A stretch of 63,984 nt of DNA, filler included, from Thelocarpon superellum (taxonomy: Eukaryota): NCBI GenBank assembly GCA_026025795.1. It is 3 parts of 3 records of this genome, joined end to end, with 100 filler letters (N's around TTAATTAATTAA, not from the genome) between each part and the next. Parts side by side here need not be neighbours in the genome. Positions count along the whole stretch, not along the records: positions 21,609 to 43,063 come from JAPEUG010000312.1; 2 more parts are not named here. One strand, written 5' to 3'. Positions 32,068 to 33,159 of the stretch are shown piece by piece. The position numbers were made by a program, and so were the translations under genes. Below the pieces are notes generated by a model that worked only from the letters and a program-made list of their open reading frames with translations, made no database searches and had not been told where the DNA came from. Numbering within the stretch: the stretch's first letter is position 1; each line of letters opens with the position of its first letter.

Positions 32068-33159
32068 ATGATGAACGCACATCTCGACCCGGACGGCCAG
32101 GGTGCTGCGGCGCCGCCCTTCCACGGCGGCAGCTTCCCGTCCACTCCCTCTCCGACCTCCCTCTACCGCCGGCCGTCGGTGGTGTCGTCGTGCTCGTGGG
32201 AGAACGGGCTGTCGAGCTACTCGTCGGAGATGTCGCTACAATCGCCCACGACGCCGCAGGCGGATGACGCGACCTCGCCCCACGGCTTGTACATCCCGGA
32301 TAGCCAGCAGCTCTTCCCGGCCATAGGTACCACGGACGTGCCGTCGCTGCCCGGCTTCCCTTCGTCCTATCCGGTCGGGCCGGAGCGGGCGGATCCATAC
32401 CCGCCCAAGGATTTCCTCATATCGCAGCTGCTGAACCCACCGACCTTCTCTGGCTTCGATGACATGACCATGTCATCAGGGCCGGAGACGACGGGGGCGT
32501 CGCAGCAGCATCCTCTCTACGAGGTGCCGTCCTACAAACTGGAGGCGACGCCGTCCTTTTACGATCTCTCGTCGTCCATGGACCCGTGGTCATCCTCGCC
32601 ACCCCAGCCCGGGCCGGCACACGGGTCGACGGTGATGCCGGCGCAGATCTTGACGGGGCCGCGGACGCCGCAGGGCGACGGCCGGCACGGGTCGATGGGG
32701 TCGCTGCCCGGCAGTGCCAAGTCCCGCTCGTCGGAGGAGCTGTTGACCTACTATCCCTTCACGACGCCGTCGCCGAGCGTCAGCGCCAGTGGGGAGCTGC
32801 CGGGCTGGAGCCGGCCGTCGACGTGCGCGGGAAACTCGTCGGAGCCGTCGACGCCGACCCGTCGCGCGACGCGACCCAAGGCGCGCAGCGCGGTGCCGAA
32901 GAAGTGGGAGCCCCGATACATCTACCCGAAGAACGAGAAGAAGCACAAGTGCCGACACCCGGGCTGCAACGGCGCCTTCCAACGACAAGAGCATCTCAAG
33001 CGTCATGAAACCAGCCACACGGGCGACCGGCCGCATGAATGCCGGGTGGCTGGGTGCAAGTTCAAAGGATCGAGAAGCGATAACCTCAAGCAGCACATGA
33101 AGCGACATCGGATCCGCGGCGGACGCGTCAAGTACGTGCCGGACTTGGTCATCGACTAG
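32068..33159 (+). CDS. brlA: C2H2 zinc-finger transcription factor, BrlA-like
   Basis: Two fingers, HKCRHPGCNGAFQRQEHLKRHETSH and HECRVAGCKFKGSRSDNLKQHMKRH, followed by RGGRVKYV. N-terminal STPSPTSLY...SW motif. Intronless; first in-frame ATG at 32068. The C2H2 call is firm, but BrlA orthology is inferred. Confidence 0.72.
   Translation: MMNAHLDPDGQGAAAPPFHGGSFPSTPSPTSLYRRPSVVSSCSWENGLSSYSSEMSLQSPTTPQADDATSPHGLYIPDSQQLFPAIGTTDVPSLPGFPSSYPVGPERADPYPPKDFLISQLLNPPTFSGFDDMTMSSGPETTGASQQHPLYEVPSYKLEATPSFYDLSSSMDPWSSSPPQPGPAHGSTVMPAQILTGPRTPQGDGRHGSMGSLPGSAKSRSSEELLTYYPFTTPSPSVSASGELPGWSRPSTCAGNSSEPSTPTRRATRPKARSAVPKKWEPRYIYPKNEKKHKCRHPGCNGAFQRQEHLKRHETSHTGDRPHECRVAGCKFKGSRSDNLKQHMKRHRIRGGRVKYVPDLVID

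Follow-up and report, generated by a model that had tools for sequence, protein, structure and literature searches.

A putative BrlA-like two-finger regulator encoded in a Lichinomycetes-type fungus, Thelocarpon superellum

How old is the regulator BrlA, and does it have relatives beyond the fungi in which it has been studied? BrlA, a conidiation regulator of Eurotiomycetes, governs conidiophore development upstream of abaA and wetA and acts by binding BrlA response elements. The question is raised anew by a gene in a 63,984-nucleotide stretch of DNA from Thelocarpon superellum (GenBank assembly GCA_026025795.1; three parts of the genome joined end to end), which we call the window. The gene encodes a protein with two C2H2 zinc fingers, designated P0001. 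We consider the best explanation, with a probability of about 0.6, to be that P0001 is a nuclear transcription factor of an old two-finger family, that its nearest named and studied relative is BrlA, and that it switches a developmental programme. In the broad sense, P0001 can be described from its sequence as a BrlA-family-like two-finger regulator in a Lichinomycetes-type fungus that does not belong to the Eurotiales. Strict orthology with BrlA is a separate claim, and for it we place the odds a little short of even.

Ojeda-Lopez et al. (2018, PMC6231087), using an e^-100 cut-off, place BrlA “solely in the Eurotiomycetes.” Etxebeste et al. (10.1101/627414) date its emergence to the same class and list the Eurotiales, probably some Chaetothyriales, and Endocarpon as carriers, and not the Onygenales; Mead et al. 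(10.1101/829465) report that Histoplasma retained BrlA. Beyond this class, two proteins named BrlA have been described as key activators of conidiation: EJP63618 of Beauveria bassiana, with 370 residues and two C-terminal fingers (PMC6616149), and KHO11655 of Metarhizium robertsii, which aligns with A. nidulans BrlA at 36.6% identity and 20% coverage (PMC9604561). A preliminary description of the locus had started from the premise that BrlA is Eurotiales-restricted. That premise is dated, as the papers give the Eurotiomycetes, and the BrlA-named genes of Beauveria and Metarhizium are reported to be needed for conidiation (PMC6231087; 10.1101/627414; PMC6616149; PMC9604561).

Fingers and C-Terminal Tail of P0001

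The coding sequence and its conserved parts are listed below, with residues numbered along P0001.

32068..33159, + strand: coding sequence of the two-finger C2H2 protein P0001; complete, intronless, 363 codons plus stop, ATG to TAG
32140..32208, + strand: N-terminal conserved block STPSPTSLYRRPSVVSSCSWENG, residues 25-47; common to the Sarea and Caeruleum proteins and loosely to BrlA (alignments)
32629..32649, + strand: mid-protein motif TVMPAQI, residues 188-194, about 105 residues ahead of finger 1; P191 and Q193 do not vary in the family alignment A4
32854..32949, + strand: basic pre-finger stretch PTRRATRPKAR...KKWEPRYIYPKNEKKHK, residues 263-294; conserved in the consensus of the window clade (P0001, P0003, P0004, and P0006)
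32950..33018, + strand: zinc finger 1, C295-H317, with a CX4C knuckle and the helix RQEHLKRH
33040..33108, + strand: zinc finger 2, C325-H347, with a CX4C knuckle and the helix SRSDNLKQH
33115..33156, + strand: C-terminal tail RGGRVKYVPDLVID, whose GGRxxYV is common to BrlA, the Caeruleum, Pycnora, and Geoglossum proteins, and P0010

About 280 residues that are predicted to be disordered precede the two fingers and the short tail. All eight zinc ligands are present. An AlphaFold2 model built from a 27-sequence alignment leaves residues 1-280 disordered and folds residues ~290-355 into two beta-beta-alpha fingers, with predicted local distance difference test (pLDDT) values of 82-91. In finger 1, which lies in this same pLDDT range, the strands span residues 293-294 and 303-304, and the helix covers 307-317; in finger 2, the strands span 323-324 and 333-334, and the helix covers 337-346. 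The solved C2H2 proteins ZFP568, KLF5, and WT1 match these fingers with expectation (E) values down to 6e-21. A structure search of the ESM Atlas with the P0001 model returned template modelling (TM) values that were all below 0.3, and is uninformative because the model is mostly disordered. From its composition, the basic stretch at residues 263-294 is a possible nuclear-localisation signal.

Finger 2 of the window clade is unusual in that Gly occupies the canonical Phe site and Phe lies two residues earlier (KFKG). All four proteins of the clade have exactly this form of the finger, which is specific to them and is still modelled as beta-beta-alpha.

A comparison of finger regions delimits a BrlA-like group in which both fingers have CX4C knuckles, the helices read RQEHLKRH and SRSDNLxxH, and the tail reads (G)GRxxYV. 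This group includes the window clade, BrlA, proteins from Caeruleum, Pycnora, Geoglossum, and Sarea, the unnamed Logan protein P0010, and Orbiliomycete proteins. Some members deviate: the Geoglossum protein has a CX2C first knuckle, the first knuckle of the Sarea protein is long (10 residues), and the GGRxxYV tail takes a variant form in the Sarea and Orbiliomycete proteins (RGRNKFV in the latter). In contrast, the remaining fungal fingers compared, among them those of the Msn2/SebA and Usv1 types, carry CX2C knuckles, end differently, and lack GGRxxYV.

BrlA resembles P0001 in having two C-terminal C2H2 fingers with CX4C knuckles. A Pro/Ile stretch ahead of the fingers is conserved in both proteins, and the tails are closely similar (RGGRVKYV in P0001, RGGRNRYV in BrlA). 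They differ in finger 2, which is of the HX3H form without the canonical Phe in P0001 and of the HX4H form in BrlA, and in their hosts, a Lichinomycetes-type fungus for P0001 and Eurotiomycetes for BrlA.

Alignment scores agree with this picture. When the family was compared with BrlA by hhalign, the match had a probability of 99.8 and an E value of 4.9e-28 over 83 columns, running from ~10 pre-finger residues (the last of the basic stretch) through the tail. Comparison with Msn2/SebA-type proteins gave a probability of 99.5 and an E value of 1.8e-22 over 54 columns, covering the fingers only. Pairwise BLASTP of P0001 and BrlA yielded 69.7 bits (E 2e-17, 34% identity over 188 residues), and phmmer aligned the two at 56% identity over 20% coverage. 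With whole P0001 as query, the first ESM Atlas cluster bears the automatic name “C2H2 type master regulator of conidiophore development brlA” (0.97, 192/256 features), which is a lead and not a test. By BLASTP and phmmer (E 1.0e-12 to 1.3e-13), the finger-region match to BrlA is far above chance, and the fingers plus tail of the two proteins are homologous.

Hypocrealean BrlA (Sordariomycetes), compared by published description only, is similar to P0001 in size and layout, with two C-terminal C2H2 fingers, and owes its name to finger-level similarity. The match between P0001 and BrlA exceeds the figures published for the Metarhizium protein, and it adds the evidence of the tail and motifs.

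Every string that the preliminary description had quoted from the protein is present: CRHPGCNGAFQRQEHLKRH at residues 295-313, CRVAGC...SRSDNLKQH at 325-343, RGGRVKYV at 350-357, GSFPSTPSPTSLY...SWENG at 21-47, and TVMPAQ at 188-193. The BrlA strings that it gave recur nearly verbatim in three Aspergillus BrlA proteins (P0008, P0009, and P0011), except that the retrieved sequences read ...SPGWHEGG rather than “SWPEHG.” Its choice of BrlA as the closest named family agrees with phmmer and with the ESM Atlas lead. Its further view, that the similarity goes past a generic finger, holds for the CX4C knuckles, the pre-finger stretch, the GGRxxYV tail, and the longer alignment (83 versus 54 columns), and is suggestive only for the N-terminal and mid-protein motifs considered below.

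A Family of Full-Length Relatives

A phmmer search with P0001 against 5.8e9 sequences gave 27 matches from 2020 candidates, and a profile made from the window clade and the Sarea protein (profile A2) was searched against 1.84e9 representatives. The informative matches are as follows.

P0007: Sarea resinae hypothetical protein, phmmer E 1.0e-13
P0008: Aspergillus BrlA, phmmer E 1.3e-13
P0009: Aspergillus BrlA, phmmer E 1.0e-12
P0011: Aspergillus BrlA, phmmer E 3.1e-11
P0012: Orbiliomycete protein, phmmer E 6.4e-11
P0245: Caeruleum heppii hypothetical protein KAI9675764.1 (named by exact look-up), A2 profile E 7e-71
P0277: Pycnora praestabilis hypothetical protein KAI9810746.1, A2 profile E 5e-46
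P0293: Geoglossum umbratile hypothetical protein KAI9783122.1, A2 profile E 1e-43

The three BrlA sequences come from A. carlsbadensis, A. granulosus, and A. brunneoviolaceus. They are the best Eurotiales matches of P0001, which bears out the forward half of the best-hit check that had been proposed for this protein. The best 150 rows of the A2 search are mostly multi-finger animal proteins and contain six usable single-stretch family members; BrlA is not among the matches listed. Three near full-length, single-stretch members, the Caeruleum, Pycnora, and Geoglossum proteins, were added from these rows.

Together with a Sarea hypothetical protein (M1819_005922), these three make up what we call the lichen-lineage proteins. 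When the fingers were removed, hhalign still matched the window clade to the four lichen-lineage proteins with a probability of 99.9 and an E value of 6e-32 over 256 columns. The lichen-lineage proteins and P0003, P0004, and P0006 have the N-terminal block, the mid-protein motif, the fingers, and the tail arranged as in P0001, in 321-421 residues. The lichen-lineage proteins differ from the window clade in lacking the KFKG form of finger 2. On the strength of these alignments, P0001 and the lichen-lineage proteins constitute a genuine full-length family that spans several “orphan” classes and whose members are all uncharacterised.

Two further searches added little. A scan of JGI metagenomes found 11 loci, all restricted to the fingers (37-49% identity, residues ~282-362), and no close relative. 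A word-indexed profile search recovered no BrlA proteins beyond the three from which its query had been aligned, and is uninformative on the number of Eurotiomycete members.

A clade of Leotiomycete-like two-finger proteins (P0013, P0014, P0016, P0022, and P0164) carries the motif F(V/I)VPSQT in common with the BrlA-like group. Its members have a CX2C second finger and the tail RTxY(F/V)PGA, and one of them is named “zinc finger protein BrlA” by JGI. This clade and the BrlA-like group may descend from one old family, of which it would be the Leotiomycete branch.

The Host Lies Outside the Eurotiales

The host was placed by means of a fragment of AP-2 beta adaptin encoded at 59257-60849 on the - strand. 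Its best named matches, at 77-80% identity, are from Sclerophora, Geoglossum, Thelocarpon, Pycnora, and Acarospora, and no Eurotiomycete name occurs among the best 120 of 4728 matches. A quick single-gene tree was built from the window sequence and 41 of the 120 listed matches, which were picked by hand (named sequences, about one per genus, plus P0117) and constitute a biased sample. In this tree, the window is sister to Thelocarpon impressellum with a Shimodaira-Hasegawa-like approximate likelihood ratio test (SH-aLRT) value of 97 and 87% identity over 483 columns. The window and Thelocarpon group with Piccolia, Sarcosagium, Caeruleum, Peltula, and Phylliscum. Thelocarpon, Piccolia, Sarcosagium, and Caeruleum have been assigned to a revised class Lichinomycetes (PMC12238968). 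By this marker the host is a Lichinomycetes-type fungus and not a member of the Eurotiales, as the preliminary description had suspected from the divergence of the protein.

How Close Is the Relationship to BrlA?

Beyond the fingers, both P0001 and BrlA have a long disordered N-terminus rich in Ser, Thr, and Pro, in which the elements TP(S/T)P(S/T)xxY...W and T(V/I)xPSQ are colinear and similarly spaced relative to the fingers. We examined this resemblance with a hidden Markov model (HMM) for which nine family members were aligned with their fingers removed. With the composition correction of HMMER switched off, the model produces one long colinear alignment to BrlA in which TP(S/T)P(T/S)xxY...W, a TP block, and T(V/I)xPSQ follow one another in both proteins with similar distances between them. 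Ranked by their best single domain, the BrlA proteins (32.7, 23.1, and 18.1) take places 1-3 among 112 real non-family N-termini, and the next score is 16.1. Residue shuffles reached 18.1 in 7 of 5467 cases, 23.1 in 2 of 5467, and 32.7 in 0 of 5467.

Two regular expressions for the motifs were also scanned over 390 proteins (315,981 residues). Matches to the mid-protein expression, [TFM][VI].P[SA]Q[TVIQ], are confined to the window clade, the lichen-lineage proteins, all three BrlA proteins, and four Leotiomycete-like proteins; of these four, P0022 had played no part in defining the expression. The N-terminal expression is likewise limited to the window clade, the Sarea and Caeruleum proteins, and two of the three BrlA proteins. 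Taken together, the resemblance in the N-terminal and middle parts of the protein provides real but weak evidence that short linear motifs may be conserved within the disordered region.

A maximum-likelihood (ML) tree of the fingers plus tail was computed from 52 rows, hand-picked from 126 candidates, over 87 columns. A split with support values of 93/97 has the Msn2, Usv1, and yeast types on one side and the BrlA-like and SteA-like types on the other. The Caeruleum, Pycnora, and Sarea proteins form a group with BrlA (89/89), and the window clade is itself well supported (100/97). When the window clade, the lichen-lineage proteins, and BrlA were forced into one clade, the log-likelihood (lnL) fell by 3.25, and the approximately unbiased (AU) test did not reject the arrangement (p-AU 0.34). 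The suggestion, made in the preliminary description, that P0001 could be an orthologue of BrlA is therefore compatible with this test, and is not borne out by the grouping in the finger tree itself, where the window clade does not join BrlA.

A number of observations weigh against a close relationship with BrlA. In the ML tree, the window clade joins the Leotiomycete-like clade instead, weakly (85/70), and 16 of the 49 inner branches are open in an alignment of only 87 columns. The BrlA sample consists of three sequences, all from Aspergillus, and in a local search of 126 proteins BrlA showed no preference for the window clade (63-65 bits) over Orbiliomycete proteins (57-68 bits). P0001 stops at the tail (...YVPDLVID), whereas BrlA runs ~45 residues further. 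With the composition correction on, the best BrlA E value from the N-terminal HMM is 0.16, and 24.7 bits are removed as bias; with it off, an unrelated Mucoromycota protein, P0157, stands above BrlA by summed score (34.4). Comparison of N-termini alone by hhalign gave a probability of 0.1 and an E value of 0.53 for the window clade against BrlA, and an E value of 0.077, without colinearity, for the lichen-lineage proteins against BrlA. Residues 1-285 of P0001, submitted alone to the ESM Atlas, had a best score of 0.77 and yielded no leads, and the two regular expressions were written after the sequences had been seen. None of the five zinc-finger families listed by Pfam reaches its curated cut-off in P0001 (zf-C2H2, PF00096, scores 17.5 bits against a gathering cut-off of 25.2), because finger 2 lacks the canonical Phe (KFKG for xxxF). 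Finally, words resembling BrlA response elements, counted with a consensus and compared with simulated means, are not enriched upstream of the gene (5 versus 6.1 in 4.4 kb; 3 versus 2.8 in 2 kb), in the 2.2 kb downstream (4 versus 2.9), or within the gene (2 versus 1.4).

Several of these points would be expected if P0001 were a paralogue of BrlA. It would then belong to a sister two-finger family, perhaps the Leotiomycete-like one (candidates P0013, P0014, P0016, P0164, and P0022), and would have only an ancestral finger type in common with BrlA; the N-terminal likeness would be compositional or convergent, and the function need not be sporulation. The weak union with the Leotiomycete-like clade and the lack of significance in the composition-corrected HMM test speak for this explanation, as does the N-terminus-only hhalign comparison, in which the window clade matches the Leotiomycete-like proteins with an E value of 0.0066 over 66 columns, a better value than the 0.53 obtained with BrlA. 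There is also a precedent, since BLAST-based “BrlA homologues” outside the Eurotiomycetes have turned out to be something else. Those of Zymoseptoria were a tiny finger protein and a Ste12 protein (ZtBrlA2), and asexual sporulation showed no apparent change when ZtBrlA1 was deleted (PMC6102487). The Zymoseptoria case is a warning on assignments made from fingers only.

However, the window clade is homologous over its full length to the Caeruleum, Pycnora, Sarea, and Geoglossum proteins, three of which group with BrlA in the ML tree. The Leotiomycete-like proteins have their CX2C second finger and RTxYFPGA tail, whereas the window clade has CX4C and GGRxxYV, as in BrlA. Monophyly with BrlA is not rejected, and no second Eurotiales member appeared among the phmmer and word-indexed profile matches, which come from non-exhaustive searches. 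Paralogy is the strongest of the competing explanations, and we regard it as less likely than not.

A second alternative is that P0001 is a generic stress or mating factor of the Msn2/SebA or Ste12/SteA kind, which matches BrlA only in its RQEHLKRH and SRSDNL helices. Msn2/SebA-type proteins such as P0183 (“sebA” of Penicillium) do have almost the same recognition helices (RRQEHLKRH and SRSDNLxQH) and match strongly by hhalign, and by the general rules of C2H2 recognition their target is probably of a similar AGGG type. SteA-like fingers, moreover, lie on the BrlA-like side of the main split in the tree. Nevertheless, the Msn2/SebA type has CX2C in both knuckles, a THGSGA-type end in place of the GGRxxYV tail, unrelated N-termini, and a clade of its own, and P0001 has neither these knuckles nor this end; the alignment is shorter (54 versus 83 columns), the 93/97 split parts this type from the window clade, and the N-terminus-only E value against the Msn2-like group is 0.18. 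Proteins of the SteA type are ~690 residues long with a homeodomain/STE region (P0177, named StlA), and Pfam finds no such region in the 363 residues of P0001. We therefore consider a generic factor of this kind very improbable.

Integrity of the Gene

The gene is real and intact. An open reading frame (ORF) scan and translation revealed no internal stop and no frame break in 32068..33159 (+). Both ends of the ORF are backed by P0003 and P0004, unnamed ENA proteins with 52-53% identity to P0001 at 100% coverage, which have a matching N-terminus and a matching ...YVPDLVID end. P0006, another unnamed ENA protein, is 40% identical. The G+C content around the gene is 66%, and several spurious ORFs overlap it on the opposite strand. 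Therefore, ORF length alone means little here, and it is the relatives that validate the gene.

Another close relative, P0005, is 47% identical to P0001 over 79% of the query and lies on a 3.18-Mb ENA contig. It leaves frame exactly where the fingers are expected to start, through pseudogenization, a sequencing error, or a wrong gene model.

Two moss-metagenome runs (X2 and X3) contain low-depth contigs that are 99-100% identical to parts of 31094-33606, and a third run (X4) contains an identical 219-base piece of the finger region. By these matches, the same or a very close fungus is present in the samples of X2, X3, and X4. Among the near-identical environmental fragments, there is one difference inside the gene, 32700 G>T, which is synonymous and falls in the third base of a Gly codon.

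That P0001 is a chance ORF or a decaying pseudogene, as the GC-rich surroundings with their spurious ORFs and the frameshift across the fingers of P0005 might suggest, can practically be dismissed in view of full-length relatives at 40-53% identity that retain the blocks, fingers, and exact C-terminus, zinc ligands that are all intact in confidently modelled fingers, and a sole environmental difference that is synonymous.

Proposed Role and DNA Target

The canonical recognition positions of a C2H2 helix are -1, 2, 3, and 6. At these positions, finger 1 of P0001 has Arg, Glu, His, and Arg, respectively, and is identical to BrlA. Finger 2 has Arg, Asp, Asn, and Gln, and BrlA differs from it only at position 6 (Ala), so that three of the four contacts are the same. 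Because these contacts match those of BrlA, P0001 is predicted to bind a site of the xAG-GGG type. This prediction agrees with the BrlA response element and with the stress response element (STRE) of Msn2.

We propose that P0001 functions as a nuclear, sequence-specific transcription factor. Its DNA-binding module would lie at the C terminus and would consist of the two C2H2 fingers and the conserved GGRxxYV tail, and, like BrlA and Msn2, it would bind an AGGG-type element. The long disordered, Ser/Thr/Pro-rich N-terminal part, with its short conserved motifs, would probably provide docking or phosphorylation sites and an activation region; in particular, the conserved blocks rich in S/T-P are plausible docking sites for kinases or cofactors. 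The protein would represent an old family of two-finger regulators of filamentous ascomycetes whose full-length members are found in Lichinomycetes-type and other “orphan-class” fungi. Once bound to its target, it would turn on a developmental programme, most plausibly the formation of asexual spores or conidiomata. We infer the AGGG-type target, the nuclear role, and the developmental function from the protein sequence, and the link to asexual sporulation is by analogy with BrlA and the hypocrealean genes named after it.

Pfam recognises no family in the long flanking ORFs at 28337-31561 and 33364-34579. The gene seems to sit in ~7.8 kb without another Pfam-recognisable ORF, which is not proof that genes are absent, and such a gene-poor surround is compatible with a large regulatory region. 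Its neighbours are a hexapeptide/eIF2B-epsilon-like gene at 26112-27620, upstream, and a Spt20-type gene at 35407-38802, downstream.

Other Features of the Window

Two tandem repeats follow the P0001 gene, and further features lie elsewhere in the window.

33201-33329: tandem repeat with a 6/12-base unit, consensus AGGGCGAGGGCA, ~6 copies, 95% match, inside a looser 21-copy hexamer array; it begins 42 bases past the stop codon of P0001
34139-34361: tandem repeat with a 35-base unit, 6.4 copies, 95% match, located where genes are sparse between P0001 and the Spt20-type gene
9421-11058, - strand: two adjacent ORFs that together encode an FHA domain and, after it, a protein kinase domain; probably a single intron-containing gene
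5186-8434, - strand: long ORF with a WW domain and a PhoD-related phosphatase domain (PhoD_2, E 2e-227)
21509-21552, 21565-21608, 43064-43107, and 43120-43163: four runs of 44 N, grouped in twos with 12 bases between the members of each pair; masked or withheld sequence, or gaps in the assembly

At 33201-33329, many of the contigs from run X1 break off or depart from the window sequence, and similar repeats therefore probably exist elsewhere in the genome. The predicted product of 9421-11058 looks like a checkpoint kinase of the Rad53/Cds1 type.

The Age of BrlA

The family to which BrlA belongs probably goes back further, and extends more widely, than is usually stated. A bolder proposal, which we advance tentatively and hold to be somewhat less probable than its converse, is that BrlA pre-dates the Eurotiomycetes. 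Filamentous ascomycetes would have had an ancient regulator, mostly in single copy, and BrlA would be its Eurotiomycete branch, which evolved fast. If this is true, the marks of the family are the CX4C knuckles, the GGRNxYV tail, and the T(V/I)xPSQ motif. A near-ancestral full-length form would have been kept in Geoglossomycetes, Lichinomycetes-type fungi, Pycnora, and Sarea, and altered in Orbiliomycetes and Leotiomycetes. The P0001 gene would then be the lichen-lineage counterpart of BrlA, perhaps controlling pycnidia or conidiomata, and a master switch for asexual sporulation would be far older than the literature states.

The “late emergence” of BrlA is used as a leading illustration of developmental networks being rewired by new regulators (10.1101/627414; PMC6231087). 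A related full-length family in early-branching or “orphan” classes would push its origin much deeper, and the question would shift from where BrlA came from to how an old regulator was recruited to conidiophores. A search of a limited literature collection found no description of such a gene for lichen-forming or Lichinomycetes fungi. P0001 is of value chiefly because it allows the age of BrlA to be tested, and lichen biology would gain a candidate regulator of asexual propagule formation.

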